Shown in pieces: positions 277 through 16,194 of a DNA stretch of 64,000 bases (position 1 is its first letter; each line of letters opens with the position of its first letter). The DNA is taken from the NCBI GenBank assembly GCA_020696385.1, contig JAEHCQ010000006.1, positions 32,001-96,000 of the forward strand, read 5' to 3'. The DNA comes from Methanobacteriota archaeon (GTDB taxonomy: Archaea > Thermoplasmatota > Thermoplasmata > SG8-5 > JAGLSY01). The notes under the pieces are model-generated. The model made no database searches. It was given only the letters and a program-made list of their open reading frames with translations, and was not told where the DNA came from. Position numbers and translations under genes: made by a program.

Positions 277-1326
277 TTATTTTTTCATAGTGTCCAGTTC
301 TGCTATTTTCTCCTTCAGAACACCAAACGATACCTTTTTTCTATCAATAGAAACTGTCATGTTCTCTGATAAGTATATTTTCTTCATTACTCCGAAGCAC
401 TCGTCCTTGAATTTCGCATGCAGGATCTCCTCCCAGTTGAAGTGCTCCTCCACATTGGGGAAGACCCCGAAATACAATAGATTGTACTTGCCCACATGAC
501 CTCTGTAAGCGATCGGAACGCATGGGTCATCTCGAATATACTGGATGATCTGTTCCTTGCATTTGTCTATCCTGATGAAGCTCACAACAAATACATGGCC
601 TGGTGGTATGCAGAATTGAGGGAATCTGCAAACTGGCTGTGTGATCAGTCCGGCCTGTGTCAGGGCTTCTATTCTTTTCTCAATTGTCTTTCTGTGTGTG
701 TCCAGTTCCTTCGACAGTAGATGTTCATTGGTCTTGATGCCCTCTCCTGCCAGCAATTTTTTCAAGATATTGAATCCCAGTTCATTCAATTTGTAGCCAT
801 TGAGTATCAACTCGCCATCCTTATCGAACCTCTTATCCATGCATGCTATACTGGAATTTGGATCATATTTGAATAGGAGTTCATTATTGACAAAGACCAC
901 GTCAGCAGGGAATCGGTTCTCTAATGGGGGGAGCTTATCGTCCTCCACTATCTTCTCCTTCCAGTAGAAGTATGAGGACATGCTCTTGTGGAATTCGAAG
1001 AGCAGTGTGTTATAGCCATCATCCCATGATTTGAAGGAGGCGAATATTGTATCATCCTCGGCCAAGAACTTGTCGATCCTGGCTTGCCTTGGAAGATCAG
1101 CCCTTACAATGGAGAAAAGAGGTCGCTCCTTGAAAAGTCCAGTGAAGGGATAGTATGGGGCTGTCAATATTCCATTCTCGAAAAGTGCGGTCACCTGTGA
1201 CTTAATTGTATTTCTGTGGCGATCGAGGCTTTTGGCCAGAGCACTAACATTGATGCTCACTCCAACACCATCACATATTTTTTCGAGTATCGCGAGAGAA
1301 AGTTCGTCTTCTAGCATATCGGCCAT
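277..1326 (-). CDS. Transcriptional regulator with two tandem Lrp/AsnC-like HTH + effector modules (paralogue A)
   Basis: Two HTH-like segments (ALAKSLDRHRNTIKSQV; LLSKELDTHRKTIEKRIEAL), each followed by an AsnC/RAM-like beta-alpha region. Aligns end to end with 9599..10648. Divergent from hydrogenase operon 1. Confidence 0.7.
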   Translation of the reverse strand: MADMLEDELSLAILEKICDGVGVSINVSALAKSLDRHRNTIKSQVTALFENGILTAPYYPFTGLFKERPLFSIVRADLPRQARIDKFLAEDDTIFASFKSWDDGYNTLLFEFHKSMSSYFYWKEKIVEDDKLPPLENRFPADVVFVNNELLFKYDPNSSIACMDKRFDKDGELILNGYKLNELGFNILKKLLAGEGIKTNEHLLSKELDTHRKTIEKRIEALTQAGLITQPVCRFPQFCIPPGHVFVVSFIRIDKCKEQIIQYIRDDPCVPIAYRGHVGKYNLLYFGVFPNVEEHFNWEEILHAKFKDECFGVMKKIYLSENMTVSIDRKKVSFGVLKEKIAELDTMKK

Positions 1327-1544: not shown

Positions 1545-3326
1545 ATGACTATGGTAGTTTCAGATATAGAAAGTGTCAAAAATGCCCAAAGTATGTCTAA
1601 GTATAAGGTCGGTATTTTTGATTTTGCAAGCTGTGAAGGATGTGAACTGCAGATAGCCAATCTTGAGGAGGATATCCTCGAGCTTTTGGATACGGTGGAG
1701 GTAGTATCATTTCGTGAGGTCATGAAGGAGCATTCCGATGACTACGATATTGCTTTCATTGAGGGTTCGATAAACAGGCCAGTTGATGAGAAAAGGCTGA
1801 AGGAGATCCGGGCAAATGCCAAGATCCTCATCGCCCTTGGTGATTGTGCCACAACTGGTTGTGTTAATAAACTGAGGAACCAATGGCCAGATGCGGAAAA
1901 TCTCAAAGAGGTCTATGCGGATGCAGACATTGCGAATAATGAGTATTTCGATGTCTTCCCGACAAAGAAGCTCAATGAGGTCGTGGATGTTGATTTCTAT
2001 ATCCGTGGATGTCCAGTCAGGAAAGAACAGGTCCTGTACTACATAAGGCGTCTTACCACGATGGCTCCAAGGAAGAACCTGGATCTCCGATTCGGTGTCA
2101 CCGCCAGGGAGCTTGAATCAGATACAAGGTCCATCATCCAGTACGATCCTCAGAAGTGCATACTGTGCAGGCATTGCGATGTTGTTTGCAATGATATCCT
2201 GGACATACACGCTATTGGATTGACCAATAAGGGAAATGAGTCCATCATATCCACGCCTTTCAATAAGGGTCTGGATGATAACAAATGTATCTCATGCGGA
2301 CAGTGTTTGGTCAACTGCCCGGTTGGTGCATTCTCCGAGCATTCCGATGTGGAGAAGGCTATAGGATTGCTTGACGATCCAAACAATTTCGTTGTGTTCG
2401 TTATAGATCTAACAGCTGCTGCAACAGCCATGGAAGTCCTGCCAACAGACAGAGAGGACTTTGGCGAGGCTTTGGGAAGTCTCATAGCGTCATTGAAATC
2501 ACTGGGAGCTGACAGAGTTGTGGATTTCACACATTTCAATTATCTTTCACTGGCAGCACAGGGAACTTATGTTAGCGAGAATGACGACATGATTTTCACA
2601 TCATGGTGTCCAAGTGCCAATTCGTACATCCGAAAATTCCATCCTGAGTTCAAAAAGAATCTGCAGAAGGTGTCATCACCCGAGCAGATTATGTTGGATG
2701 TCCTGGGTGAGAGATATACAAAGGGAGAGAAGGATCTGAAGATAATCCTTCTGTCACCATGTATCGTCCACAAGGGTAATTCAAAGATCGATGCGGTCTT
2801 GACTGCCAGGGAACTTCCAAGACTTCTCAAGCAGAAGGGCGTGGACATTGACTTCTATGAGCCTTCGGAAGGTGTGTTCGATTGCGAACTTGGCTTGTCC
2901 AGTGTCTTTGTCAAGGGTGCCAGTAGCGACTATGCTTACTCATTGGCAATAATACAGACGGCTTACATGAGAAAGTTCAATAATCTCGATGCCCGGCTGG
3001 CTGTGACCACTCTTGAGGATTATGTTCATGAAATGGCCTTCGACAGTGAAGAAGGCTTCTTCAATGCTCTCATAATCGAGGATCTGGCGAAGGCGAGTAA
3101 GTATCTGACAAAGGACATTGCCAAGAGATACAATGTGGTGGAACTGTACCCATGTTTCCACGGTTGTCTAACAGGTGGCGGAACCGTACCAACTACTTCG
3201 ATAGATGTTATTGACCAGCGTAGGGACCATCTGAAGAATTTCAAGGGCGAGTCCAAGGGGCCTGTCTGGTTCTCAAAGCAGATAATAGAGGCTTATGACA
3301 AGCAGATAAAAGGAGGTGATGAGTAA
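1545..3326 (+). CDS. Chimeric hydrogenase subunit: group 3b [NiFe] small-subunit N-domain + 2x[4Fe-4S] + degenerate [FeFe] H-cluster domain
   Basis: DFASCEGC / GDC / GCP proximal-cluster motifs (C30, C33, C101, C156); CILCRHCDVVC and CISCGQCLVNCP ferredoxin motifs; H-domain L1/L2/L3-like FTSWCP, LSPCIVHK, ELYPCFHGCLTGGG. The true start may be ATG 1593 (MSKYKVG), which matches the start of the paralogue at 13590. Confidence 0.85.
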   Translation: MTMVVSDIESVKNAQSMSKYKVGIFDFASCEGCELQIANLEEDILELLDTVEVVSFREVMKEHSDDYDIAFIEGSINRPVDEKRLKEIRANAKILIALGDCATTGCVNKLRNQWPDAENLKEVYADADIANNEYFDVFPTKKLNEVVDVDFYIRGCPVRKEQVLYYIRRLTTMAPRKNLDLRFGVTARELESDTRSIIQYDPQKCILCRHCDVVCNDILDIHAIGLTNKGNESIISTPFNKGLDDNKCISCGQCLVNCPVGAFSEHSDVEKAIGLLDDPNNFVVFVIDLTAAATAMEVLPTDREDFGEALGSLIASLKSLGADRVVDFTHFNYLSLAAQGTYVSENDDMIFTSWCPSANSYIRKFHPEFKKNLQKVSSPEQIMLDVLGERYTKGEKDLKIILLSPCIVHKGNSKIDAVLTARELPRLLKQKGVDIDFYEPSEGVFDCELGLSSVFVKGASSDYAYSLAIIQTAYMRKFNNLDARLAVTTLEDYVHEMAFDSEEGFFNALIIEDLAKASKYLTKDIAKRYNVVELYPCFHGCLTGGGTVPTTSIDVIDQRRDHLKNFKGESKGPVWFSKQIIEAYDKQIKGGDE

Positions 3327-3805
3327 TGGAAGCTAAAGATAAATTCATTATAGATACTATACTACATACCTATTCAAATATAGATGACCCTCAACTTGTG
3401 ATATTGCAGAATATTCAGGAAATTCTCGGATATGTCGGAGAGGAATATCTCACATATGTTTCCGAGAACAGTGAATATTCACTTACCGAACTTTATGGTG
3501 TTGTATCCTTCTATCCTCAATTTAGATTTGACCCACCTGGAAAACACACCATCAAGGTCTGCAGTGGTACAGCATGCCATGTTAGAGGTGGCTCTGGCAT
3601 CGCACAGGAATTGGAAGATATTCTGGAGATCAAACCTGGCGGAACCACAAAAGATGGATTGTTCTCACTAGAGTCCGTCAGATGTCTGGGATGCTGTGGT
3701 CTTTCACCTGTCATCATGATCGATGAAGAGACATATGGCCGTGTGAAGAAAGGTGGCCTTCAAAAGATACTTGAATCTTACAAAACCGAGGAGGTTGCTG
3801 AATGA
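3326..3805 (+). CDS. hydC: HydC/NuoE-like [2Fe-2S] subunit
   Basis: GVVSFYPQF, VCSGTACHVRG and VRCLGCCGLSPV thioredoxin-like [2Fe-2S] motifs; start overlaps the upstream stop (TAATG); RBS GGAGGTGA. Confidence 0.9.
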   Translation: MEAKDKFIIDTILHTYSNIDDPQLVILQNIQEILGYVGEEYLTYVSENSEYSLTELYGVVSFYPQFRFDPPGKHTIKVCSGTACHVRGGSGIAQELEDILEIKPGGTTKDGLFSLESVRCLGCCGLSPVIMIDEETYGRVKKGGLQKILESYKTEEVAE

Positions 3806-3861
3806 GAGAGCATAGCGATTTCATTCTGGAGCCCGTAACGCAGAGGAGGGGTCTACAATGA
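3802..3861 (+). CDS. Intercistronic mini-ORF 1 (MREHSDFILEPVTQRRGLQ, 19 aa)
   Basis: ATGA overlap with the hydC stop and with the hydB start; GGAGGT at 3790-3795; homologous to the mini-ORFs at 7010 and 7748. Confidence 0.5.
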   Translation: MREHSDFILEPVTQRRGLQ

Positions 3862-6800
3862 AAATAAGCAAGATCGTCCACCTTAGGGACATGGCCCAGA
3901 GGGGTAAGGAATCCATGGATAATGGAACACCCCAGGTGATATTTGGATTGGCCACCTGTGGAATAGCAGCTGGCGGAATGCCGCTCAAGGAATATGCAGA
4001 GCTGTATCTGGATGAGAACGATGTTCATGCGGACATCGTTTCCGTGGGTTGCATCGGTATGTGCCATGCGGAACCATTGGTCGATATCAAATTACCCGGA
4101 AAGCCACGTGTTACCTATTCGGACATGGACATTGAAAAGCTGAAGAAGATACTGGATGAGCACCTTGTTGGGGAGGAGCCCGTCAAGGACCTTGCAATGT
4201 GCCAGCTTACAGATGAGATATCCGAGTGCGAGCATGGTGTCATTGCCGAGACCGATATCTATGATGGCATTCCAAGATATCAGGATCTACCTTTCTTTGC
4301 CAAGCAGATAAGGGTGGCCTTGAGGAACTGTGGAATTGTGGTTCCTGAGGATATCGAGGAATACATCGCCAGGGGCGGCTACCGAGCTGCTTACAGATCA
4401 CTGTTCGAACTAACGCCAGAGGAAATAATTGGCGAGGTCAAGACATCTGGAATACGCGGAAGAGGTGGAGCTGGTTTCCCAACTGGTTTGAAATGGGAGT
4501 TCTGTCACAAAGCACCAGGTGACGTGAAATACGTTATCTGTAATGCAGATGAAGGAGATCCAGGAGCTTACATGGATCGTGCAGTTTTAGAAGGTGATCC
4601 GCACAGTGTTATCGAAGGTATGATAATCGGTGGATACGCAATGGGAGCCTCGGATGGTTATATCTACATCCGTGCTGAATACCCGCTGGCCATCGAGAAA
4701 CTGAAGAAAGCTATTGCTTCTGCAGAAGAACATGGCATACTTGGTGACCGTGTCTTTGGAATGGATTACAGCTTCAGGATACACATTCGTGAGGGAGCTG
4801 GTGTTTTCGTTTGTGGTGAAGAAACTGCGCTCATAAACTCCATCGAAGGTAAGAGAGGCGAACCGAGGCCAAGACCGCCATTCCCGGCTGTCAGCGGTCT
4901 TTGGGGCAAACCTACAAATATCAACAATGTCGAGACCTGGGCCAATATCGCCATGATACTTCAGAAGGGCGGAAAATGGTTCTCCACCATGGGAACAGAG
5001 AAGAGCACTGGGACTAAAGTATTCTCTTTGGTAGGGAAAGTGAACCGCGCAGGTCTTATTGAAGTTCCAATGGGAATTCCGATGAAGGACATCATCTATG
5101 AGATCGGCGGCGGTATCATGGACGGCCGCAAGTTCAAGGCCGTTCAGACAGGCGGCCCCTCTGGTGGTTGTATTCCGGAGGAACATCTGGATATTCCCGT
5201 GGATTATGATAATCTGAAAACACTGGGTTCCATTGTTGGATCTGGTGGAATGGTGGTTCTCGATGAGGACACCTGCATGGTGGATGTTGCAAGATACTTC
5301 CTCACTTTCACAGCCGAGGAATCATGTGGGAAATGTACTCCATGCAGGATCGGAACAAGAAGATTGCTGGAGATACTTGAGAAGATATGTCACGGAGAAG
5401 GTGTGATGGAGGATCTCGAGGTACTTACGAGCCTTTCCGAGCAAGTGAGTGCAAGTGCGCTCTGTGCCCTTGGAGGAACAGCACCCAATCCGATCATCAC
5501 CACCATGAAGTACTTCATGAACGAGTATGTGGATCACATTGAGAACAAAATATGTGATGCATCTGTTTGCGCAGCCATGTTCAAGTCGCCATGTCAGAAC
5601 ACATGCCCGGCAGGAACCAATGTGCCTGGTTACATCCAGCTGATAACAGAAGGCAGGTATGCAGAAGCATATGATGTCAACAGGGAGGCAAACCCCTTCC
5701 CATCCATTTGTGGAAGGGTCTGTGAGCATCCTTGTGAAGGTAGATGCCAGCGTGCGCAATTGGACGAACCAATCGCCATTCGTGAGCTCAAGAGATATGC
5801 TTCTGATGAGGCATTCAAGGCAGGCGTTGGAAAAATATCCACACTTGATGATGTGGATAAGACCATCGCCATTGTGGGTGGAGGACCATCCGGTCTTTCA
5901 GCAGCCTATTTCCTGAGAAGGATGGGGTACAAGCCAACTATCTATGAAGCCGAAGAGAAGATGGGTGGCTGGGTACGATACGGAATTCCAAAGTACAGAC
6001 TGCCACATGAGATAATCGACAAGGAGATCCAGGATATCATCGATCTGGGTGTTGTGGCCAAGACAAATACCAGTGTGGGCAAGGACGTGACAATGGAAAC
6101 ACTGCTCAATGATAATGATGCGGTATACCTGGCCATCGGAGCCCAGAAGGACACGAAACTGGGACTGGAAGGTGAAGATCTTCCAGGCGTGCTTCCAGGA
6201 CTTCAGCTGCTCAAGGAAATGAACAGCGGCAAGTCTGTAGATCTGGGTCAGAGCATTCTCGTGATAGGTGGAGGAAATGTGGCTATCGATGTCGCAAGGA
6301 CCGCTGTCAGGATGGGAACCAAGGTCACCATATGCTACAGACGAGAAGAGGATGACATGCCAGCTTACGATGAGGAGATCGAACACTGCAGAGAGGAAGG
6401 CGTGGAATATCACTTCCTGGTCGCACCCGAGAAGCTCATTGTGGAAGGCGGAAAGGTCGTTGGAGCAGTCTTCAGAAAGAATGTCATGGGCGACTTCACC
6501 AAGTGGGGCCGCAGATCACCTGTCGCTACCGATGAGACTGTCGAGATAAGGGCTGACCGTGTGGTCAATGCCATTGGACAACAATTGGATACTGACTTTG
6601 CTGGTGGAATGAATATCGTGGGTGATTCAAGGTGGATACCCGTAGAAGGAACAGGAAGCTCAGCTTGGTTCCCGAAGATATTCGCTGGTGGAGACGCAGT
6701 AACTGGACCTGCAAGTGTGATAGATGTGGTGGCTGATGGTAAGAGAGCGGCCAAGAACATTGATCTGTTCTTGGGTGGCAATGACCGACTGGCCGAGTTG

Positions 6801-7013
6801 GAAAAGATGAACAATACCAACTATTCCAATGTCGAGCCAGACAATGCCGAGCCAATGCAGAGACAGGGCGTTAAGGAACTCAATGCTGATGATAGGACAT
6901 GCGGCTTCGAGGAAGTTGTCATGTGTATGGATTCAGAATGTGCAAAGAAAGAGGCATCCAGGTGTTTGAGGTGTGATCTCAGTGCGGACACAGATGGAGG
7001 TGATGTTGAATGA
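3858..7013 (+). CDS. hydB: HydB/NuoF-like FMN/NADH subunit fused to a GltD/NfnB-like FAD/NADPH module
   Basis: N-terminal thioredoxin-like [2Fe-2S] (TCGIAAG, GCIGMC); GRGGAGFPTG, NADEGDPGAYMDR, CGEETAL, SCGKCTPCR; then PCQNTCPAG, CGRVCEHPCE, GGGPSGLSAA, GGGNVAIDVAR, CYRR, FAGGD, EASRCLRCD. Confidence 0.9.
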   Translation: MKISKIVHLRDMAQRGKESMDNGTPQVIFGLATCGIAAGGMPLKEYAELYLDENDVHADIVSVGCIGMCHAEPLVDIKLPGKPRVTYSDMDIEKLKKILDEHLVGEEPVKDLAMCQLTDEISECEHGVIAETDIYDGIPRYQDLPFFAKQIRVALRNCGIVVPEDIEEYIARGGYRAAYRSLFELTPEEIIGEVKTSGIRGRGGAGFPTGLKWEFCHKAPGDVKYVICNADEGDPGAYMDRAVLEGDPHSVIEGMIIGGYAMGASDGYIYIRAEYPLAIEKLKKAIASAEEHGILGDRVFGMDYSFRIHIREGAGVFVCGEETALINSIEGKRGEPRPRPPFPAVSGLWGKPTNINNVETWANIAMILQKGGKWFSTMGTEKSTGTKVFSLVGKVNRAGLIEVPMGIPMKDIIYEIGGGIMDGRKFKAVQTGGPSGGCIPEEHLDIPVDYDNLKTLGSIVGSGGMVVLDEDTCMVDVARYFLTFTAEESCGKCTPCRIGTRRLLEILEKICHGEGVMEDLEVLTSLSEQVSASALCALGGTAPNPIITTMKYFMNEYVDHIENKICDASVCAAMFKSPCQNTCPAGTNVPGYIQLITEGRYAEAYDVNREANPFPSICGRVCEHPCEGRCQRAQLDEPIAIRELKRYASDEAFKAGVGKISTLDDVDKTIAIVGGGPSGLSAAYFLRRMGYKPTIYEAEEKMGGWVRYGIPKYRLPHEIIDKEIQDIIDLGVVAKTNTSVGKDVTMETLLNDNDAVYLAIGAQKDTKLGLEGEDLPGVLPGLQLLKEMNSGKSVDLGQSILVIGGGNVAIDVARTAVRMGTKVTICYRREEDDMPAYDEEIEHCREEGVEYHFLVAPEKLIVEGGKVVGAVFRKNVMGDFTKWGRRSPVATDETVEIRADRVVNAIGQQLDTDFAGGMNIVGDSRWIPVEGTGSSAWFPKIFAGGDAVTGPASVIDVVADGKRAAKNIDLFLGGNDRLAELEKMNNTNYSNVEPDNAEPMQRQGVKELNADDRTCGFEEVVMCMDSECAKKEASRCLRCDLSADTDGGDVE

Positions 7014-7066
7014 GCGACTATAAGGAGCACATTCAAAAGCCCGTAATGATAATGGAGGGATTCTGA
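7010..7066 (+). CDS. Intercistronic mini-ORF 2 (MSDYKEHIQKPVMIMEGF, 18 aa)
   Basis: ATGA overlap with the hydB stop; perfect GGAGGTGA at 6996-7003; its stop abuts the next ATG (TGA-ATG). Confidence 0.5.
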   Translation: MSDYKEHIQKPVMIMEGF

Positions 7067-7747
7067 ATGGCAACGACTTCATTCAAAATAAACATAGTGA
7101 TTGATGGAAAGGACTATGCTGGAGAGCCGAACCAGACAGTACTGGATGTAGCAAGGGCGAACTCGGTTGATATACCAACCCTTTGCTTCAATCCACTGTT
7201 CCCCGACCACAGGATCGGGTCTTGCAGACTGTGTCTGGTCGAGGTGAAAGCAGGGGGCAGACCCGGTCTGCAACCAAGTTGTACGATGCCAGTTTCTTCT
7301 GGATTATCTGTATCCACTATCAGCGATGCGGTGTATCAGGCAAGGAGGACTGTTGTAGAACTTCTGCTATCCGAGCATGTTCAGAAATGTCGCGATTGTC
7401 CAGTCAGTGGCGAGTGTAACTTTGCCAAGCTGTGCAGGGATTATGATATTAATGGAGTACCCGTATGTGCCGAATGCCCGAATCAGGGAGAAGGCTGTCT
7501 TTTGACAAGAGGAGAGCTTTGCCTGGGACCATTGACATATGCCAACTGTAATGCTTTCTGCACCCGAAAAGGGTACAGGTGCGAGGGTTGTCATTCGATA
7601 ATGGCCAATGAGGATATTCTCAGGTTCGGATTGAAGGCATACAAGGATGCTGGCTTCACAAAAGAAGAGATACTTGTAGCGGCCAAGGTCTTCTCCTATG
7701 ATTCGATGGAGATGCTTGAGCGTGTGATGACCGAGGAGGGGTTTTGA
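7067..7747 (+). CDS. Chimeric Fe-S subunit: HydA/NuoG N-terminal [2Fe-2S] + His(Cys)3 domain fused to the C-terminal 8-Cys domain of a group 3b [NiFe] small subunit
   Basis: IPTLC..GSCRLC..PSC and EHVQKCRDCPVSGEC, then Cx2Cx6Cx7Cx8Cx3Cx6Cx2C with spacing identical to the C-terminus of the small subunit at 13590..14366. Confidence 0.85.
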   Translation: MATTSFKINIVIDGKDYAGEPNQTVLDVARANSVDIPTLCFNPLFPDHRIGSCRLCLVEVKAGGRPGLQPSCTMPVSSGLSVSTISDAVYQARRTVVELLLSEHVQKCRDCPVSGECNFAKLCRDYDINGVPVCAECPNQGEGCLLTRGELCLGPLTYANCNAFCTRKGYRCEGCHSIMANEDILRFGLKAYKDAGFTKEEILVAAKVFSYDSMEMLERVMTEEGF

Positions 7748-7804
7748 ATGCGAGAACAAAGTGATTGTATTCAAGAACCCGGAATGCCAAAGGAGGGATT
7801 CTAA
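7748..7804 (+). CDS. Intercistronic mini-ORF 3 (MREQSDCIQEPGMPKEGF, 18 aa)
   Basis: ATG immediately follows the upstream TGA; GGAGG at 7735-7739; its stop lies 1 nt before the large-subunit ATG (7806). Confidence 0.5.
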   Translation: MREQSDCIQEPGMPKEGF

Positions 7805-7805
7805 G

Positions 7806-9131
7806 ATGAGTGAAATAAACATTAATGTAGAGCATTTGACAAGAGTAGAAGGACATGGAAACATCGTCCTGAATGCGAAAGATGGTACCATTGAGAAGAT
7901 ACAGTGGCAGGTCTCAGAGGCCCCACGTCTCTTCGAGTCCTTCGTCAGAGGCAAGCCATACAATCAGTTGGCTCCAATAACATCCAGGATATGTGGTATC
8001 TGTTCAATAGGCCACACACTGGCCTCATTGAAAGCTACTGAGGCCGCTATGGATATTGAAATATCCGAGCAGAGTCAGAAACTGAGACGATTGGCTATCC
8101 ATGCCGAGAATCTTCAGAGCCACATACTCCATGTAGGATACCTTGTAGCTCCTGATCTTTTTGGTGTTGGGAGCGTGGTGCCACTCGTTGGTTCAAACCC
8201 CAACGAGGTATTGGCTATCGTCAAGCTCCACAGACAGGCTAACTTGATGTCCGATCTGATATGCGGCAGGACGACACATCCTACAAATCTGGTGCCAGGC
8301 GGTATCTACAAAACACCATCTCCATATGCGCTGAAGGATATCAAACAGAACCTGCTGGATATGGTTCCAACAGGCAATGCGGTCGGCGAGGTCATACTTG
8401 CCAATGCAGGAGCCCTTCCGGATTTCAAGAGAGATACGGAATACATCGCTCTTGTTACGGATGATGAATATGCCCTGTATGATGGAATGGTTGGGTCAAC
8501 CGATGAGGAGCCACAGCACGTGGATGCTTACAAGACCATTGTGAATGAGTTCGTGGTCCCATATTCCACAGCCAAGTTTACCAAGAATAAACGCGACTCA
8601 TACATGGTCGGAGCATTGGCCAGGTTCAACCTGAATGCCGACAAGCTCAGTCCTATGGCCAAAGAATGGGCCAGCAAGTTCGGTCTAAAACCAGTTAATC
8701 CAAATCCCTTCATGAACAATGTGGCGCAATTCGTTGAATTCGTTCACTCCATCGAGGATTCCGTCAGGATAATCGACGAGCTATTGGACGGCGGATTGAA
8801 GCAGGAGCCAACACCAAAGGTCACGCCAAAGGCAGGACGTGGTGTAGGTGCTGTGGAAGTTCCAAGAGGTCTTCTCTTCCATGAATATGAGTATGATGAC
8901 AAGGGAAACTGTGTAAAGGCGAACTGTGTGATACCGACCAATATGAACCACAACAATATCAACCAGGATTTCGCGGCTATAGCTCCAACACTCCTTGATC
9001 TACCAGAGAAACAGATCGAGCTGACATTGGAGATGCTTGTCAGAGCGTATGATCCGTGCATAAGCTGTTCCACCCACTATCTGAATGTCGAGTGGGCCAA
9101 TGGCTCTGGGACAAAAACGGGGGGGAACTAA
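7806..9131 (+). CDS. hyhL: [NiFe]-hydrogenase large subunit, group 3b-like (copy 1)
   Basis: TRVEGHG, L1 SRICGICS, EVPRG, L2 YDPCISCSTH plus a 17-aa cleavable C-terminal extension. Start set at ATG 7806 (MSEININVEH) by the RBS and by the paralogue. Confidence 0.95.
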   Translation: MSEININVEHLTRVEGHGNIVLNAKDGTIEKIQWQVSEAPRLFESFVRGKPYNQLAPITSRICGICSIGHTLASLKATEAAMDIEISEQSQKLRRLAIHAENLQSHILHVGYLVAPDLFGVGSVVPLVGSNPNEVLAIVKLHRQANLMSDLICGRTTHPTNLVPGGIYKTPSPYALKDIKQNLLDMVPTGNAVGEVILANAGALPDFKRDTEYIALVTDDEYALYDGMVGSTDEEPQHVDAYKTIVNEFVVPYSTAKFTKNKRDSYMVGALARFNLNADKLSPMAKEWASKFGLKPVNPNPFMNNVAQFVEFVHSIEDSVRIIDELLDGGLKQEPTPKVTPKAGRGVGAVEVPRGLLFHEYEYDDKGNCVKANCVIPTNMNHNNINQDFAAIAPTLLDLPEKQIELTLEMLVRAYDPCISCSTHYLNVEWANGSGTKTGGN

Positions 9132-9553
9132 TGGAAAGTGTATCACAGAATTCGTATGAAGCAAATGATATCCTTGACCTCATCCAGGCCTGTGGAACAG
9201 GAACTGGCATGGAGCAACAAGGTGCGCGCAATTCTCTTGAAAGGGTAGGAGGATCTGCTGTTGGTCCACTGTCAGAGGCACTATTGCATGACACGAATGC
9301 AATAGTGAGATACAGGTCTGCCGAGGCCCTTGGTCATATTGGGGACCCCTGTGCTATAGAACCATTGATAAAAGCTCTGGGGGATGATGATTCATCGGTC
9401 CAGTGGAGGTCCATCGAGGCATTGATAGATATCGGTGAGCCAGCAATGGAAATGATCGCTTCGAAAGTAAATGGCAGGAATATCAGTAAGGATCTGCGAT
9501 GTAACCTGCGCTATGCTTTGATGGAGATCCTGGAAAATCGAGGTAAGCAATAA
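9131..9553 (+). CDS. HEAT-repeat (PBS-lyase-like) protein
   Basis: VRYRSAEALGHIGDPCAIEPLIKALGDDDSSVQWRSIEALIDIG repeats; ATG 9131 overlaps the large-subunit stop (TAATG). Confidence 0.8.
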   Translation: MESVSQNSYEANDILDLIQACGTGTGMEQQGARNSLERVGGSAVGPLSEALLHDTNAIVRYRSAEALGHIGDPCAIEPLIKALGDDDSSVQWRSIEALIDIGEPAMEMIASKVNGRNISKDLRCNLRYALMEILENRGKQ

Positions 9554-9598
9554 AGGAAGACCAAGCGTAAATAGAATAATGGTCGGATGAGTAATACT

Positions 9599-10648
9599 TC
9601 ACTCATCCGATCTCTTTTCATTTTTTCTCTTCAAGTTCTTTATGATGCCGTGTGATATCTTCTGCTGATCGATATGCGTGGCCATTCTGGGTGAGAGGTA
9701 TATCTTCTTCATGGCTCCTATGCATTCCTTGAACCTGTGATCGTACTTGTCCTCCCAATCAAAATGATCCTCCACACTGGGGAACACACCAAAGAGAAGG
9801 AAATTATATCTGCCGATGCCAGCTTCCCACGCCATCGGTATATGATCATCATTCTCTATTGCCTTTAGTATCTTTGATTTGGTCCTCTTGACCTCCATCA
9901 GGTAATAGACAAGTATCTGGTCTGGGGGTACGAAGAAATTTGGAAATCTGCATACGGGATCCGAGATTATGCCCGCCTCTTTCAATGATCTGAGGCGTCT
10001 TTCGATGGTCTTTCTGTGGACATCCAGCTTCTGTGCCAGCATGTTCTCATTGGTTCTTATCCCATCTCCCTGTACCAGCATTTTGAGTATATTGAAGCAT
10101 AGATTGTTGATATTGTATCCATTGAGGCTTAGCTTGCCAGTCCCCTTGAACTTTTTCTCCATTATGAATATTGGAGAGTAAGGTTTGTTCTTTATGATGT
10201 CCTTATTGCTGAACACCAGGACATGAGCTGAATTCCTCCTGTCTCTCTGCGGGATCTTATTGGTATTGACTATCTCTTTTTTCCACTGGCCATAGGAGTG
10301 TATGTCCTTGTGGAATTCGATCAATAATGTATTGTATTCCTCGTCCCTAACATGGAAGGCTGCGAAGATGTGCTCATCGCTCTTGAACCAGTTCTCGGTA
10401 TCATCATTTCTCGGAAGCTCAGCTCTTGCGATCGCGAGCATCGGGTATTCATCATACAGCCAGCTAAATGGATACACTGGCTTATTGATAATTTCATGGC
10501 TGAATAATGCATTTATCTGGGACTTGATAGTGTTCCGATGTCTATCAAGGGTCTTTGCAAGGTGGCTTATGTTCACTTCCACTCCTTCACCGGTGCAAAT
10601 ACTCTCCAGAATTTTCAGATTCAATTCATCTTCTAGCAGTTCTGTCAT
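9599..10648 (-). CDS. Transcriptional regulator with two tandem Lrp/AsnC-like modules (paralogue B)
   Basis: HLAKTLDRHRNTIKSQI and MLAQKLDVHRKTIERRL HTH segments; homologous to 277..1326; GGTGA RBS before ATG 10648; divergent from operon 2. Confidence 0.7.
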   Translation of the reverse strand: MTELLEDELNLKILESICTGEGVEVNISHLAKTLDRHRNTIKSQINALFSHEIINKPVYPFSWLYDEYPMLAIARAELPRNDDTENWFKSDEHIFAAFHVRDEEYNTLLIEFHKDIHSYGQWKKEIVNTNKIPQRDRRNSAHVLVFSNKDIIKNKPYSPIFIMEKKFKGTGKLSLNGYNINNLCFNILKMLVQGDGIRTNENMLAQKLDVHRKTIERRLRSLKEAGIISDPVCRFPNFFVPPDQILVYYLMEVKRTKSKILKAIENDDHIPMAWEAGIGRYNFLLFGVFPSVEDHFDWEDKYDHRFKECIGAMKKIYLSPRMATHIDQQKISHGIIKNLKRKNEKRSDE

Positions 10649-10855
10649 TATCACCTGGATAAACTGTCAATATAAATACATTTTCAATGATATAATGCTA
10701 TAATTTATTATTTGAGGTGTGAAAATATATACATAATACGCGCGCCCTCATCTAGGTGATATTTTGTATGTTATAGCACTAATTATCATTAATAGTATCA
10801 TTTACGACACTTTATTTCATTTATGTTATCATAATTTATTAATACATATCTGGTG

Positions 10856-11676: not shown

Positions 11677-13593
11677 ATGAAAATAATATCAAAACAAGAT
11701 TTCGATGCCTTTATAAATGCCCTGATCCAGGATGAATCTTTGGATGTTGAGGGTGTGAAAGCCAAAGGAGATAAGTTCGTATTTGGACCGTTAGATACAG
11801 CAACAGAGCTGCGCCTGGACTATGATGTGACCATACTTCCACCCAAGAAGTATTTCCTTCCTCAGTACGAGACCATGATGCATTTCGATATATCAACTGG
11901 GAAGGCCACGGCTCCAGCAATGGACACGAAGAAGGTCATTGTGGGAGTTCATCCATATGACCTGATAGCGATCCAGCAGATGGACAAATACTTCTTTGAC
12001 ACCAATGTTGATGACATATATCTGCAGAAGAGGAAGAACTCTCTTCTGATAGGTGTAATGCCCGCGAAGGCCTCTGAGAAGGCCTTCTATGGGGATCTGA
12101 TGAAAAATGCAGGTACTCCAGAATTGCACTTCGATCTGATGGTGACTGACCTGGGTGTGCTATATGCTGTCCTTCCAGGAACTCCGGAAGGGGCACAGCT
12201 CCTTTCGAGAGCGACATCCCGGGATGCACAGCCCCAGGAGATAGAGGCTGCCAAGAACAAGCGGCAGGAAGCGATAGACAGGGCAACAAGAGGTTTGAAG
12301 GTTGGTCCTAAGGCATGGCATTCTCTTCTATCGAACAACTACATGAGCTCAATATGGAAGGAGATGGCAGATCAGTGTCTGGCATGCGGTTCCTGTACTC
12401 TCGTTTGTCCAACATGTTTCTGCTATGATGTCAATGACGAGGTCGGATTGGACCTCAATACCGGTGTCAGGACCAGAACCTGGGATGGCTGTCTTCTTAG
12501 AGACTTCACAAAGGTCGCACCTGGCGAGATATTCAGGGAGGATATCGTCGAGAGATATCGCCACAGGATAAACAGGAAGGGCAAGTACCTCCCCGAATCA
12601 ATGGGCTTCGTTGCCTGTGTGGGATGTGGGAGATGCTCAAGCCAGTGTGTTCCTGATATTGCTGATCCGGTCAATTTGATCAATAAATTGGCTGAGGCAA
12701 CTATGGACACGATACCCGACACGAATATGGGCCATGTGCCAGAGAAATCTGACCTTGGAATAATTGCCAGTGATTCATTGTACATACCAAGGACCGCGAC
12801 CATAAGACGGATGATGAAACTCACCAAGACAGAGACTTTCTTCGAGATCGGTCTAGATGATGGCCAGCCTCTTGGACATGTGCCTGGTCAGTTTGTCGAG
12901 GTATCCATATACGGTGTGGGTGAAGCACCAATTTCAGTATCTTCTCCTCCCGGAGGGAACACATTCCAATTGATAGTAAGGAATGTGGGGGATCTGACCA
13001 ATAAGCTCCATTCATTGAGCGAAGGAGACAAGATTGGGATCAGAGGTCCATTCGGTACTGGCTTTGACACGGAAGGTATGAGGGGAAAGAACATTTTGTT
13101 CATTGGTGGTGGATTGGGCATAGTTCCAATGCGCTCCCTTATCAAGTATGTGCTGAACAACCGTGCAGACTATGGCAAGGTCATGATCCTCTATGGTTGC
13201 AAGGATCCCAGTGAGCTTCTCTTCAAGGATGAGATATCTCAATGGGAGAATACACCTGGCGTCGAAATGCATAGGACAGTGGATACCTGTGCAGAGGGCG
13301 AAAATTGGGATGGGCAGGTAGGTGTCATAACCACCATCATGCCTATGGTGACCTTCGACCCATTGAATACCATCGCTGTGGTAGTTGGACCACCGATCAT
13401 GTACAGGTTCGTGAACCGCGATCTGCTTAACATGGGTATGCCTGAGGAGAATATCATTGTCTCTCTGGAAAGGCGTATGAAATGCGGCGTGGGCAAGTGC
13501 GGTCACTGCCAGATAAATGGAATATATGTCTGTAAAGAGGGGCCTGTATTCAATTATAAAGACATTAAAGATGAACCGGAGGCGTTTTCATGA
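11677..13593 (+). CDS. Fused sulfhydrogenase beta (AsrA-like 2x[4Fe-4S]) and gamma (FAD/NAD(P), [2Fe-2S]) subunits
   Basis: CLACGSCTLVCPTCFC, RTWDGC, CVGCGRCSSQC; then PGQFV, GEAPIS, RGPFG, GGGLGIVP, VGPPIM, ERRMKCGVGKCGHC, CKEGPVF. Confidence 0.9.
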   Translation: MKIISKQDFDAFINALIQDESLDVEGVKAKGDKFVFGPLDTATELRLDYDVTILPPKKYFLPQYETMMHFDISTGKATAPAMDTKKVIVGVHPYDLIAIQQMDKYFFDTNVDDIYLQKRKNSLLIGVMPAKASEKAFYGDLMKNAGTPELHFDLMVTDLGVLYAVLPGTPEGAQLLSRATSRDAQPQEIEAAKNKRQEAIDRATRGLKVGPKAWHSLLSNNYMSSIWKEMADQCLACGSCTLVCPTCFCYDVNDEVGLDLNTGVRTRTWDGCLLRDFTKVAPGEIFREDIVERYRHRINRKGKYLPESMGFVACVGCGRCSSQCVPDIADPVNLINKLAEATMDTIPDTNMGHVPEKSDLGIIASDSLYIPRTATIRRMMKLTKTETFFEIGLDDGQPLGHVPGQFVEVSIYGVGEAPISVSSPPGGNTFQLIVRNVGDLTNKLHSLSEGDKIGIRGPFGTGFDTEGMRGKNILFIGGGLGIVPMRSLIKYVLNNRADYGKVMILYGCKDPSELLFKDEISQWENTPGVEMHRTVDTCAEGENWDGQVGVITTIMPMVTFDPLNTIAVVVGPPIMYRFVNRDLLNMGMPEENIIVSLERRMKCGVGKCGHCQINGIYVCKEGPVFNYKDIKDEPEAFS

Positions 13594-14366
13594 AACCAAA
13601 AGTAGCATTCTTTGACTTTGCCAGTTGTGAGGGGTGTCAGCTTCAGGTCGTGAACCTGGAGGAGGCTATCCTTGACGTATTGGCATTGGTGGACATAGTG
13701 TCCTTCAGAGAGGCCATGAAGGAACACTCGGACGATTATGATATAGCCATAATCGAGGGTTCCATCGCAAGGCCAATTGACATAGATCGAATAAAGAAGA
13801 TACGCGAGCAGGCCAGCATACTCATAACCATCGGAGCATGCGCTCACCTTGGCGGTGTGCAGAGGCTGGGTAATCAGTGGGATGCCGAGGCAAATAAGGT
13901 CGAGGTCTATGAGAGACACCCAGGCTCGGAGATAACCAAGGGTGATTCCAACCCATATTTCGCACAGATAAAGCACAGAGCGGTGAGCGAGATAGTGAAG
14001 GTGGACGCTGCCATACCCGGCTGCCCCATTGACTCCAATGAATTTGGCAAGGTCTTGGTCGCACTTCTGACTGGCAAAAAACTACCCATACCAGACTACC
14101 CGGTATGTGTGGAGTGCAAGAAGAACGAGAATATCTGTGTATTCGAAACAGGCGGATTCTGCATGGGTCCAGTCGCTCGGGCTGGATGCGGTGCGCCCTG
14201 CCCAACACATGGTGGCGAATGCGAGGCATGTAGGGGATATGTGGATCATCCGCATACTCAGGCGCATGGTGAGGTCCTGAAGAAATACGGACTCAGTCCG
14301 GATGATATCATGACCAAGAGGACCATGTACAATTATCGCGACTTCGAAGATAAAGGAGGTGACTAG
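13590..14366 (+). CDS. hyhS: [NiFe]-hydrogenase small (delta) subunit, group 3b
   Basis: DFASCEGC, GACA, PGCP and a C-terminal 8-Cys domain (VCVEC...CMGPVARAGCGAPCP...CEACRG); ATGA overlap with the upstream gene. Confidence 0.93.
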   Translation: MKPKVAFFDFASCEGCQLQVVNLEEAILDVLALVDIVSFREAMKEHSDDYDIAIIEGSIARPIDIDRIKKIREQASILITIGACAHLGGVQRLGNQWDAEANKVEVYERHPGSEITKGDSNPYFAQIKHRAVSEIVKVDAAIPGCPIDSNEFGKVLVALLTGKKLPIPDYPVCVECKKNENICVFETGGFCMGPVARAGCGAPCPTHGGECEACRGYVDHPHTQAHGEVLKKYGLSPDDIMTKRTMYNYRDFEDKGGD

Positions 14367-14367
14367 A

Positions 14368-15666
14368 ATGGGTGAGATAAACATCAATGTAGAGCACTTG
14401 ACAAGAGTTGAAGGCCATGGGAATATAGTATTGAACGCAAAAGATGGAACCGTTGAGTTCGTCCAGTGGCAAGTATCCGAGGCTCCAAGATTCTTCGAAT
14501 CATTTGTCCGAGGAAGACCGTACAATGAACTGAGCCACATCACCTCAAGGATATGCGGTATATGCTCGATAGGACACAGCCTGGCCTCGTTGAAAGCGAC
14601 CGAGGCCGCAATGGGCATCCAGATAACTGAGCAGACTCAGATATTGAGAAGACTAGCCATCCATGCAGAGAACTTGCAGAGCCATGTGCTCCATGTAGGT
14701 TACCTGGTCGCGCCCGATCTTCTGGGAGCACCAAGTGTCGTACCTCTGGCAAGCAGTCATACCGATGCGGTCCTGAAAATTGTCGGGCTACACAGATTGG
14801 CAAATGAATTCTCCAATCTGGTCTGTGGAAGGACAGTACACCCTGTAAGCCTCATAGTTGGTGGTTTCAGCCACATACCCTCAGAAAAGCAATTGAAGGA
14901 AATTCGCCAGAAATGGGTGGATGCGATACCAGATGTGGTCGCGGTCGCTGAGATCGTTCTATCACTGGCTCACAAACTTCCGAACTTCACAAGGGAGACG
15001 GAATTCATCGCGCTTACGGCTGACGATGAATACGCGATCTATGATGGCGACATCGGTTCGACCGATGGCGGACGTTGGCCAGTTGCAGAATACTTGGACA
15101 TAACCAATGAGTTCGTTGTGCCGCATTCGACTGCAAAGTACACCAAGCACAAGAGGGAATCGTACATGGTGGGCGCACTTGCCAGGTTCAATTTGAACTA
15201 TGACAAGATGGGGCCACTGGCAAAGGAATGGGCTGGCAAGTTCGGACTTCAGCCAGTCAACCACAATCCTTTCATGAACAATGTCGCTCAGCTTGTAGAG
15301 ATCGTCCACAGTATCGAGGATACACTGGCTCAGATCGACAAGCTACTGGAAATGGGTGTCAATGTCAATGAGAGGCCCAAGTACGAAGTGAAGGCTGGCC
15401 GAGGTGTCGGAGCTGTTGATGTACCACGTGGAATTCTTTTCCACGACTACACATACGATGACAAGGGCGTATGTGTAAAGGCAAACTGCATAATCCCGAC
15501 CAACCAGAACCACAATAATATAAACTTGGACTTCCAGGCAATAGCCCCAACATTACTGAACCTCCCGGAAAAGGAGATCGAGCTGACATTGGAGATGCTC
15601 GTCAGAGCGTATGATCCATGCATAAGCTGTTCGACCCATTATCTGGACGTGCAGTGGAAGAGATAG
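14368..15666 (+). CDS. hyhL: [NiFe]-hydrogenase large (alpha) subunit, group 3b (copy 2)
   Basis: SRICGICS and YDPCISCSTH plus an 8-aa extension; RBS GGAGGTGA at 14355-14362 supports ATG 14368. Confidence 0.95.
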   Translation: MGEININVEHLTRVEGHGNIVLNAKDGTVEFVQWQVSEAPRFFESFVRGRPYNELSHITSRICGICSIGHSLASLKATEAAMGIQITEQTQILRRLAIHAENLQSHVLHVGYLVAPDLLGAPSVVPLASSHTDAVLKIVGLHRLANEFSNLVCGRTVHPVSLIVGGFSHIPSEKQLKEIRQKWVDAIPDVVAVAEIVLSLAHKLPNFTRETEFIALTADDEYAIYDGDIGSTDGGRWPVAEYLDITNEFVVPHSTAKYTKHKRESYMVGALARFNLNYDKMGPLAKEWAGKFGLQPVNHNPFMNNVAQLVEIVHSIEDTLAQIDKLLEMGVNVNERPKYEVKAGRGVGAVDVPRGILFHDYTYDDKGVCVKANCIIPTNQNHNNINLDFQAIAPTLLNLPEKEIELTLEMLVRAYDPCISCSTHYLDVQWKR

Positions 15667-15700
15667 ATCCCCCAAAAATAAAAGGGATGGAAATAACAAT

Positions 15701-15728
15701 GGAAGAGGCAGTTTAATATGCCTCTTCC
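15701..15728 (+). terminator. 10-bp stem-loop after the hydrogenase 2 structural genes (terminator, attenuator or stabiliser)
   Basis: GGAAGAGGCA-8 nt-TGCCTCTTCC followed by a pyrimidine-rich tract. Confidence 0.45.
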
Positions 15729-15744
15729 CCCTTTCATATTTTAC

Positions 15745-16194
15745 ATGAAACAGGCAATTATCGGTATTGGCAATCCTCTTATGGGGGATGACGGCGCTGG
15801 CATAGCGGTTCTCAACCTATTGAAACAGCGCAAGTCCGAGCTCCCGGAAGACATCGATTATGTCGAGATGGGAACTGGTGGTATCAATCTCGTTCATGTA
15901 CTGGCGGATTATGATAAAGTCGTGCTGATAGATGCAGCCAAGTTTGGAGGCCAGCCTGCTGAAATAAGAAAATTCAGGCCGGACGAGGTGCATACACTGA
16001 AGACCCAGGGCTACAGTCTTCATGATTGGGACCTTTTCACAAGCCTGGATATCTCCAAAAAAATGGGCGAGCTGCCCGATGATATTATTATTTTCAGTGT
16101 GCAGATCATCGATGCATCGCCAGTGGATCACATGACACCACAGGTGGAAAAGGCTGTGGTGGAGATGGCTGGTATGATTGTAGATTTATTTTGA
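15745..16194 (+). CDS. hycI: Hydrogenase maturation endopeptidase
   Basis: IGIGNPLMGDDGAG, VLIDAA, SLHD motifs. Confidence 0.9.
   Translation: MKQAIIGIGNPLMGDDGAGIAVLNLLKQRKSELPEDIDYVEMGTGGINLVHVLADYDKVVLIDAAKFGGQPAEIRKFRPDEVHTLKTQGYSLHDWDLFTSLDISKKMGELPDDIIIFSVQIIDASPVDHMTPQVEKAVVEMAGMIVDLF

Follow-up and report, generated by a model that had tools for sequence, protein, structure and literature searches.

A probable archaeal [FeFe]/[NiFe] hybrid hydrogenase operon that encodes two reciprocal mosaics of HydA and a [NiFe] small subunit

How can an [FeFe] and a [NiFe] hydrogenase share one operon in which neither HydA nor the [NiFe] small subunit is encoded in one piece? The question is raised by a locus of an archaeon whose closest labelled relatives belong to the Thermoplasmatota. 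The window analysed here comprises 64,000 nucleotides (nt) of contig JAEHCQ010000006.1 (assembly GCA_020696385.1), positions 32,001-96,000 of the forward strand, and all coordinates count from window position 1. The open reading frame (ORF) listing of the window gives six co-directional genes (n=6) on the + strand, spanning 1545-9553. This region is very probably an orthologue of the group F [FeFe]/group 3f [NiFe] hybrid hydrogenase operon, in which two mosaic proteins, the HydA-HyhS fusion (P0001) and HydD (P0004), are reciprocal to each other and would complete each other's iron-sulfur (Fe-S) wires. An earlier reading of the letters alone, the original prediction, had named five ORFs, and all five are present on the + strand as given. 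The six genes of the operon are:

1545..3326, + strand: HydA-HyhS fusion P0001, the first chimera; 593 amino acids (aa); small-subunit N-domain, HydA 2x[4Fe-4S], H-domain
3326..3805, + strand: HydC P0002, NuoE-like thioredoxin-fold [2Fe-2S] subunit (PF01257, 147.6 bits)
3858..7013, + strand: HydB P0003, with an N-terminal [2Fe-2S]-like region, a NuoF FMN/NADH core and a GltD/NfnB-like FAD-NAD(P) C-half (Pfam and NCBIfam)
7067..7747, + strand: HydD P0004, the second chimera; 226 aa; HydA N-half and small-subunit C-half
7806..9131, + strand: HyhL P0005, group 3 [NiFe] large subunit (Pfam/NCBIfam), 71% identical to the paralogue P0009
9131..9553, + strand: HEAT-repeat protein, final gene of the operon, whose ATG overlaps the hyhL stop

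Domain make-up of the fusion and of HydD

The prediction that gene 1545..3326 joins the N-half of a small subunit to the C-half of HydA is borne out by Pfam, NCBIfam and Protein Data Bank (PDB) chain matches. Pfam places Oxidored_q6 at residues 30-169 of P0001, the Fer4 dicluster at 204-262 and Fe_hyd_lg_C at 307-545. The sulfhydrogenase-1 delta model of NCBIfam (positions 4-175 of 261) matches residues 18-192 with 91 bits, and the [FeFe] group A6 model (positions 132-526 of 571) covers residues 191-563 with 168.4 bits. Among solved structures, residues 17-168 match 9nez_A residues 1-148, and residues 180-560 match 8a6t_A residues 121-519, the HydA match being continuous from the ferredoxin domain through the H-domain in both the model and the structure. 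The N-domain is 54% identical to residues 2-147 of P0006, an intact small subunit encoded further downstream, and all 8 Cys of the ferredoxin domain are retained in 86 of 86 family rows. The parts of the fusion are:

1593..2054, + strand: small-subunit N-domain, residues 17-170, with proximal-cluster Cys C30, C33, C101 and C156 (compare 9nez_A residues 1-148)
2133..2345, + strand: HydA-type 2x[4Fe-4S] ferredoxin domain, residues 197-267
2415..3233, + strand: H-domain, residues 291-563, with H-cluster Cys C355, C406, C537 and C541, and Trp354 at the position of the proton-transfer Cys

The second Cys of the proximal-cluster CxxC is replaced by Asp in 9 of the 86 family rows (P0054, P0055, P0080, P0082, P0083, P0085, P0086, P0088 and P0089), which on the alignment is a variant ligand set for this cluster.

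For gene 7067..7747 the opposite combination had been predicted, and it is the one outlined by the family models. Pfam recognizes Fer2_4 at residues 7-85 of P0004 and the His-ligated NADH-G_4Fe-4S_3 motif at 93-130, and has no model over the last 95 residues. NCBIfam fills this part: positions 1-122 of the 571 of the A6 model match residues 8-133 with 110.6 bits, and positions 164-251 of the sulfhydrogenase-1 delta model match residues 131-216 with 57.5 bits. Likewise, residues 8-136 match 7q4v_A residues 4-128, and residues 131-217 match 9e1j_A residues 160-247. When the C-half is scanned alone, small-subunit models are the only ones to match, at 60.7 (sulfhydrogenase-1 delta, positions 164-251), 41.9 and 19.8 bits. 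Its Cys spacing, Cx2Cx6Cx7Cx8Cx3Cx6Cx2C, is identical to that of P0006 when the printed translations are compared by eye, as the original prediction had it; the half is 28% identical to P0006 residues 167-253, and the helical tail past the Cys aligns too. In family scans the N-terminal proximal-cluster domain is absent from the HydD chain and sits on P0001 instead. The cluster ligands of HydD (4 + 4 + 8 = 16) are invariant across 18 aligned HydD sequences that are 48-75% identical to P0004. HydD is divided into:

7085..7456, + strand: HydA/NuoG-type [2Fe-2S] and His(Cys)3 [4Fe-4S] domains, residues 7-130
7457..7717, + strand: 8-Cys C-domain of a group 3b-type [NiFe] small subunit, residues 131-217, which in the parent is the seat of the medial and distal clusters

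Of a putative flavin-based bifurcating HydBC core, family scans located the NuoF core, the NADH_4Fe-4S domain and the GltD-type dicluster domain in HydB, together with HydC. The profile hidden Markov model (HMM) maps and the conserved operon agree with the proposal that every domain of both parents is present once, cross-wired, next to HydC, HydB-GltD and a [NiFe] large subunit.

The five-gene cluster is described by Greening et al. (2024, Cell; PMC11216029) as the group F [FeFe]/group 3f [NiFe] hybrid hydrogenase of uncultured archaea, and an AlphaFold2 model of the complex is given there for Thermoplasmatota UBA147. The surmise that the first chimera might be known was therefore right, and the second, which had been listed among the parts most likely undescribed, is already the HydD of that paper. 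For a further type, group G, hydA and hyhS are reported to be adjacent but separate genes. The main text of the 2024 paper presents HydD as a NuoG-like conduit with four clusters and treats the fusion's three relay clusters as belonging to the [NiFe] part. In its methods, the cofactors of HydD were placed from two templates, chain A of 7T2R and chain E of 5ODC, the latter a [NiFe] small subunit; the small-subunit likeness of HydD has thus already been put to use, but goes undiscussed in the passages on HydD. The domain maps obtained here differ from this wording in that they assign the C-half of HydD to the small subunit and divide the clusters of the fusion into 1 of small-subunit and 2 of HydA type.

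The UBA147 hybrid has the same five genes in the same order; its orthologues lie on contigs L011 and L002, to which the window operon is 59% (fusion), 75% (HydD) and 74% (HyhL) identical. As far as the published text describes the hybrid, it shares with the window operon the small-subunit/H-domain fusion, a HydB with a GltD-like domain and the lack of HydEFG, and the window operon differs in its species, an extra HEAT-repeat gene and three intergenic repeat insertions. The features of groups F/3f that were looked for, a one-chain fusion, contiguous HydC/HydB/HydD/HyhL, orthology with UBA147 and conserved cluster Cys, are all found in the window. From the group A set the four H-cluster Cys are present, and the proton-transfer Cys and the HydE/HydF/HydG maturases are missing. 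The hybrid hydrogenase is already known, and the basic picture in print is unchanged. No statement of a reciprocal swap or a crossover origin was met in passages of PMC11216029, PMC11406978, PMC12578642, PMC9304861 and PMC8880783, and the figures and supplements of the first (Figures S2-S4, Table S2) may show the domain make-up of HydD.

Breakpoints, wiring and origin of the pair

By domain mapping at the sequence level, P0001 and P0004 are shown to be reciprocal halves of HydA and a [NiFe] small subunit. For each parent the best family of both halves is the same (the A6 model and the sulfhydrogenase-1 delta model, respectively), and the E-values for the four halves range from 1e-16 to 1e-49. 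Chance resemblance is excluded by these E-values together with the conservation of both chimeras. Residues 2-126 of the full-length HydA P0096 align to P0004 and residues 128-427 to P0001, which gives a split at 126/128. For the small subunit P0006, residues 2-147 align to P0001 and residues 167-253 to P0004, with the split between 147 and 167. Each parent is broken just ahead of its own two-cluster relay domain. The junctions named in the original prediction, nt 2060-2130 and about 7450, correspond to residues 172-196 of the fusion and residue 129 of HydD, where the family matches switch.

Both junctions are conserved. A search of 5.8 billion proteins with the fusion returned 94 matches, made up of 85 fusion homologues (338-869 aa) and 9 ordinary HydAs, and orthologues of the fusion in the same gene order are 59-96% identical. 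Synteny was read from 29 fetched loci, in which 25 distinct contigs hold part of the hybrid cluster. The two-half HydD comes next in 18 of the 18 contigs with the fusion that reach beyond hydB; 5 others stop earlier and 2 start inside hydB. HyhL directly follows HydD in 18 of the 19 contigs that continue. On the 162-kb contig L001 the operon is 96-98% identical to the window copy. Misassembly, which the original prediction had wanted checked, is excluded because the same junctions recur across independent assemblies, and the chance that the chimeras are an assembly artefact is negligible.

The second chimera was also searched on its own. phmmer of HydD against 1.84 billion representatives gave 8712 matches, nearly all to the N-half only; an E-value of 1e-30 or lower was reached by 6 of them, and 5 of these 6 are two-half chimeras. 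At the sequence level this shows the two-half HydD to be rare and tied to the hybrid enzyme. P0109, a candidate for a HydB-HydD fusion, was rejected because it is a molybdopterin oxidoreductase that carries two N-termini of NuoG type. In trees made with FastTree, the N-halves of the fusion (n=20) adjoin a starred clade of 57 ordinary 3b-like small subunits, the 327-aa type being outside. The HydD C-halves (n=18) form one clade (support 99, stem 1.14) beside the 3b-like C-halves and apart from the 327-aa type. Segment scan, PDB match and tree agree in placing the HydD C-half with 3b-like small subunits, the grouping that had been anticipated.

Solved enzymes provide the unswapped counterparts. 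The bifurcating [FeFe] HydABC of Thermoanaerobacter kivui (8A6T), Thermotoga maritima (7P5H) and Acetobacterium woodii (7Q4V) are the best solved matches of both HydA-derived halves and have homologous HydB and HydC. In these enzymes, however, a single polypeptide makes up HydA and has Cys in the proton-transfer position, and a NiFe module is absent. The delta subunit of Pyrococcus furiosus sulfhydrogenase 1 (9NEZ, 9E1J, 9E15) and P0006 are the best small-subunit matches of both halves and share the 8-Cys spacing, but carry both halves in one protein of 256-266 aa. The [NiFe]-HydABCSL of Acetomicrobium mobile (PDB 7T2R/7T30; PMC8880783), as far as its published description was compared, likewise combines a HydBC core, a HydA-like conduit and a group 3 NiFe module. 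Its chain 7t2r_E matches P0001 residues 17-170, and 7t2r_A matches P0004 residues 7-131 and P0001 residues 181-264. In that enzyme, however, HydA forms a single chain that includes the ferredoxin domain, the small subunit amounts to an N-domain of 179 aa, a small-subunit C-domain is absent altogether, and HydB is without the GltD-like half seen in the window HydB. The Hox hydrogenase (5XF9, HoxY + HoxU) resembles the hybrid in having a small subunit cut to its N-domain and a [2Fe-2S]/[4Fe-4S] conduit, whereas HoxU keeps the HydA ferredoxin domain and lacks the small-subunit C-domain, and Hox has no H-domain. Hox-like clusters adjoin the hybrid operon in L024 and L028.

The two reciprocal chimeras would have to pair, each completing the Fe-S wire of the other. 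The HydD C-half would sit on the fusion N-domain, so that electrons could pass from the NiFe site to the proximal, medial and distal clusters. The HydD N-half would dock on the fusion ferredoxin domain and lead from the H-cluster over the F-clusters to the His cluster and the [2Fe-2S] cluster. Both wires would meet at HydD and then feed the flavin-based HydBC core, which, as proposed in print, would link H2, in either direction, with NAD(P)(H) and a carrier of low potential.

The same reading offers a possible origin. A circular hydC-hydB-hydA unit might have inserted into hyhS by a single Campbell-type crossover, although the event may have run in the reverse direction. One crossover between hydA and hyhS would yield both chimeras and the order hyhS(N)-hydA(C), hydC, hydB, hydA(N)-hyhS(C), hyhL. 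The observed order reads as hyhS-hyhL interrupted by a circularly permuted hydC-hydB-hydA. Among the fetched loci the order C-B-A occurs in six NuoEFG-like or Hox-like clusters (L008, L015, L020, L021, L024 and L028). The hyd genes of T. maritima are presumably also ordered C-B-A, and from the operon naming we take the gene order of A. mobile to be C-B-A-S-L. A crossover within a shared Cys motif was considered and rejected: P0006 past residue 147 aligns to the fusions with many gaps and by Cys spacing only, and no microhomology can be claimed.

Several points weigh against this reading, and two rival architectures draw on them. The FrhG-type model matches P0001 residues 20-267 at 69 bits, and 3zfs_B matches residues 9-275. 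On the first rival, the fusion would combine a full FrhG-type small subunit, holding three [4Fe-4S] clusters, with an H-domain that lacks further HydA parts, and HydD would be a NuoG-like conduit with a Cys-rich tail of other origin, so that no swap took place. This is the published way to read the fusion in the main-text wording of PMC11216029, which speaks of three relay clusters of the [NiFe] component, and the lack of a Pfam model for the HydD C-half suits it. We consider it improbable. When residues 185-290 of P0001 are scanned alone, the A6 model scores 95.5 bits (positions 135-226) and FrhG is not within the best 25 families. Because of this isolated-segment score and the unbroken HydA match, the fusion is read as probably carrying one small-subunit cluster and two HydA F-clusters. 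The HydD tail, for its part, has the small-subunit scores, spacing and helical end described above, which speak against another origin.

The second rival takes HydD for a diverged HoxU-like protein with the first three domains of HydA, its C-half being the HydA ferredoxin domain. phmmer drew out one alignment of P0004 residues 9-199 to 8a6t_A residues 5-182, across the ferredoxin domain, and the first three Cys of the 8-Cys domain are spaced like Cys 1, 2 and 4 of the ferredoxin motif. The HoxU, NuoG and A6 models nevertheless end at P0004 residues 118-133, and the isolated C-half finds no ferredoxin or HoxU model at E<=0.01, so that this reading is even less probable than the first.

A structure model of HydD adds a further point against the reciprocal reading. 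An AF2 monomer of HydD is confident over the N-half, which Foldseek matches in the PDB to the N-termini of HydA, NuoG and HoxU, but the Foldseek matches span only about 120-133 columns, that is the N-half, and the block mean pLDDT over C-half residues 131-190 is 37-71. Prediction of the pair P0001 residues 1-195 and P0004 residues 125-226, each with its alignment, scored 0.18 against a mark of 0.32, which speaks neither for nor against the pairing, and no structure or complex model of this analysis displays it. The trees rest on 94-154 columns with many open forks and are weak. The two small-subunit halves have diverged unequally from the neighbouring paralogue P0006, with which the N-half shares 54% identity and the C-half 28%; owing to this and the long stem of the C-half clade, a common single donor for both is no more than possible. 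The single-crossover origin is inferred from gene order only, and it may have run either way, since a reverse event would resolve the chimeras again. The reciprocal reading is retained in view of the domain maps and their conservation.

The H-domain pocket and its maturation

The original prediction saw a degenerate H-pocket as a likely novelty of this locus, but the trait belongs to the whole family and does not reflect decay of this one copy. The proton-transfer Cys is replaced by Trp in 85 of 86 family rows (Trp354 here), the lone exception being a fragment, versus Cys at this position in 8 of 9 group A references. That the proton-transfer residues differ in the hybrid fusions is also stated in the text of PMC11216029. 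The loop after the second Cys motif of the H-domain is deleted, and the Lys is displaced by one residue. Of the 86 rows, 83-84 retain the GGG motif and the four Cys of the H-cluster; the others are gaps or fragments.

Maturation genes were sought in the genome, which is 94.5% complete and 0.39% contaminated, at family cut-offs. HydE and HydG have no match at all, with a small doubt left by incompleteness, and HydF is not reached, GTPase matches below the cut-off being the only ones (27 bits vs 326). The genome has HypD and a single Fe_hyd_lg_C gene. With no HydE, HydF or HydG match at cut-off, the [FeFe] site may or may not be active in vivo, which counts among the points against the main reading.

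The H-domain may therefore not be a second catalytic hydrogenase in the cell; it could serve as a [4Fe-4S]-only relay or as an H2- or redox-sensing module, with H2 turnover at the NiFe site alone as in [NiFe]-HydABCSL. This alternative concerns function and fits the proposed architecture. The missing maturases, set beside HypD and the HycI protease that are present for the NiFe site, favour it, as do the Trp, the lost loop and the shifted Lys. Further points for it are that two relatives (P0072 and P0084) bear histidine-kinase and receiver domains, and that a [4Fe-4S] cluster in place of the H cluster is described for A. mobile HydA in a passage of PMC9304861. The near-universal retention of the H-cluster Cys and GGG motif, on the other hand, argues for selection on a bound cluster. 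PMC11216029 reports, moreover, that of two group F fusions matured artificially one produced H2, at a level near 5% of that of the algal reference, and that most archaea with active [FeFe] enzymes are without HydEFG. On balance a non-catalytic H-domain is a possibility that we regard as rather doubtful.

Relatives, neighbours and the intercistronic repeat

The survey in PMC11216029, by its text, covered archaea only. Of the 25 contigs with a hybrid cluster, 10 bear bacterial labels (L014-L022 and L024), namely Balneolales/Balneolaceae (7), Gammaproteobacteria, Gemmatimonadales and Nealsonbacteria. One label was checked: a HydD gene (G001:C4:569592-570248) and a sigma-70-family gene (G001:C4:360493-361191) share a 667-kb contig. 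L024 ('Nealsonbacteria') and L028 ('Thermoplasmata') have nearly the same identities and layout, and at least one of these two labels is doubtful for that reason. In L022 (14815-16102, labelled Gemmatimonadales) hyhL matches as two overlapping pieces in different frames, which is a frameshift or a sequencing error.

Most fusion relatives (P0037-P0094; L006, L013-L024 and L026-L028) are about 458-529 aa long, versus 554-593 aa for the form of the window type. These shorter proteins mostly fall under the Pfam threshold for Fe_hyd_lg_C. The Trp-Cys motif and all four Cys of the H-cluster are preserved in them, and their genes lie in the same five-gene order. A cluster labelled Hadarchaeota (L025:119-9267) retains the fusion, HydC, HydB and HydD, and no [NiFe] large subunit follows. 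It is flanked by an HdrA-MvhD-like gene before and an HdrB/C-like gene (Fer4 and two CCG domains) after, and its gene content suggests a derivative wired to a heterodisulfide-reductase-like module. The kinase-fused P0072 and P0084 (859 and 869 aa, 38-39% identical to the fusion, one labelled Planctomycetota), which add a histidine-kinase ATPase and receiver domains, hint at a sensory use of the module.

Around the hybrid operon, a terminator-like hairpin lies at 9581-9612, downstream of the HEAT-repeat gene. The start of hyhL is most likely the ATG at 7806 (MSEININ..., as in the paralogue P0009) rather than the GTG at 7761, judging by the translations. A maturation protease as the gene 3' of hyhL was rejected, the product being the HEAT-repeat protein, and the HycI protease follows the second hydrogenase. 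An ORF at 1361-1540 (59 aa, TTG start) was treated as spurious; it has no family match and sits in the AT-rich promoter region. A pair of paralogous genes at 277-1326 (-) and 9599-10654 (-) brackets the operon; the products are 49% identical, about 350 aa long and carry HTH motifs each, and they may be regulators. The window also contains three very long ORFs, at 39673-49875 (-) with 3400 aa, 52632-57440 (+) with 1602 aa and 58064-62797 (-) with 1577 aa. The second hydrogenase, assigned by family scans, serves as the unswapped reference:

11677..16194, + strand: neighbouring ordinary group 3b-type hydrogenase
11677-13593, + strand: HyhBG fusion
13590-14366, + strand: intact small subunit P0006
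14359-15666, + strand: large subunit P0009
15718-16194, + strand: HycI protease

The mini-ORFs between the operon genes had been counted by the original prediction among the parts most likely to be new. They are real, but they do not belong to the hydrogenase and instead represent copies of a palindromic repeat that is scattered over the genome. In the operon these are:

3802..3861, + strand: repeat copy 1, 19-codon mini-ORF overlapping the hydC stop and the hydB start
7010..7066, + strand: repeat copy 2, 18-codon mini-ORF between hydB and hydD
7748..7804, + strand: repeat copy 3, 18-codon mini-ORF between hydD and hyhL

Each mini-ORF begins with an ATG that overlaps or adjoins the stop of the gene before it, and ends with a stop that overlaps the start of the following gene or lies no more than one base from it. 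The three copies are about 70% alike. Each element starts on the stop codon of a gene; the 5' arm of the palindrome includes the stop-plus-ATG, and a GGAGG box stands at the 3' end ahead of the next start. With one copy as the query, BLAST located 10 additional sites (E<1e-5), spread over six of the genome's contigs (C11, C22, C33, C44, C47 and C48; loci L088-L096), and a loose pattern of the hairpin arms found 39 places in the genome versus 0 in the reversed genome. Some copies bear one or two extra hairpin modules. In the 96-98% identical relative L001, copies follow the fusion gene and hydD but are lacking behind hydC and hydB, a placement that differs from that in the window operon; the mini-ORFs are absent from the other hybrid loci. 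An Rfam scan of the whole window at gathering thresholds gave no match, so the repeat is not a curated RNA family. By their placement, the mini-ORFs are apparently by-products or coupling devices of a dispersed, genome-wide intercistronic repeat and not specific to the hydrogenase.

Taken together, the observations could be joined in a single picture, which we offer tentatively and think somewhat unlikely to hold in full. One reciprocal crossover ahead of the relay domains would have created an obligate domain-swapped pair, the H-domain would work in electron relay or H2 sensing instead of providing a second site of catalysis, and the family would extend into bacteria, with derivatives that lack the NiFe subunit (Hdr-like wiring) or carry kinase/receiver domains.

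To our knowledge, no complex other than the hybrid hydrogenase unites both of the unrelated metalloenzymes that activate H2. Our analysis adds domain maps that support a reciprocal swap, the fit of the gene order to a crossover, the Trp of 85 in 86 rows, the missing maturases and the bacterial-labelled contigs. The universal loss of the proton-relay Cys and the absent maturases sharpen the question of whether the [FeFe] site is catalytic in vivo. The bacterial-labelled contigs, the Hdr-linked form without HyhL and the kinase-fused forms indicate that use of the module is not confined to the archaea of the published set. The reciprocal reading gives a concrete wiring diagram of which domain would dock where, and the crossover model offers a simple account of the odd gene order.

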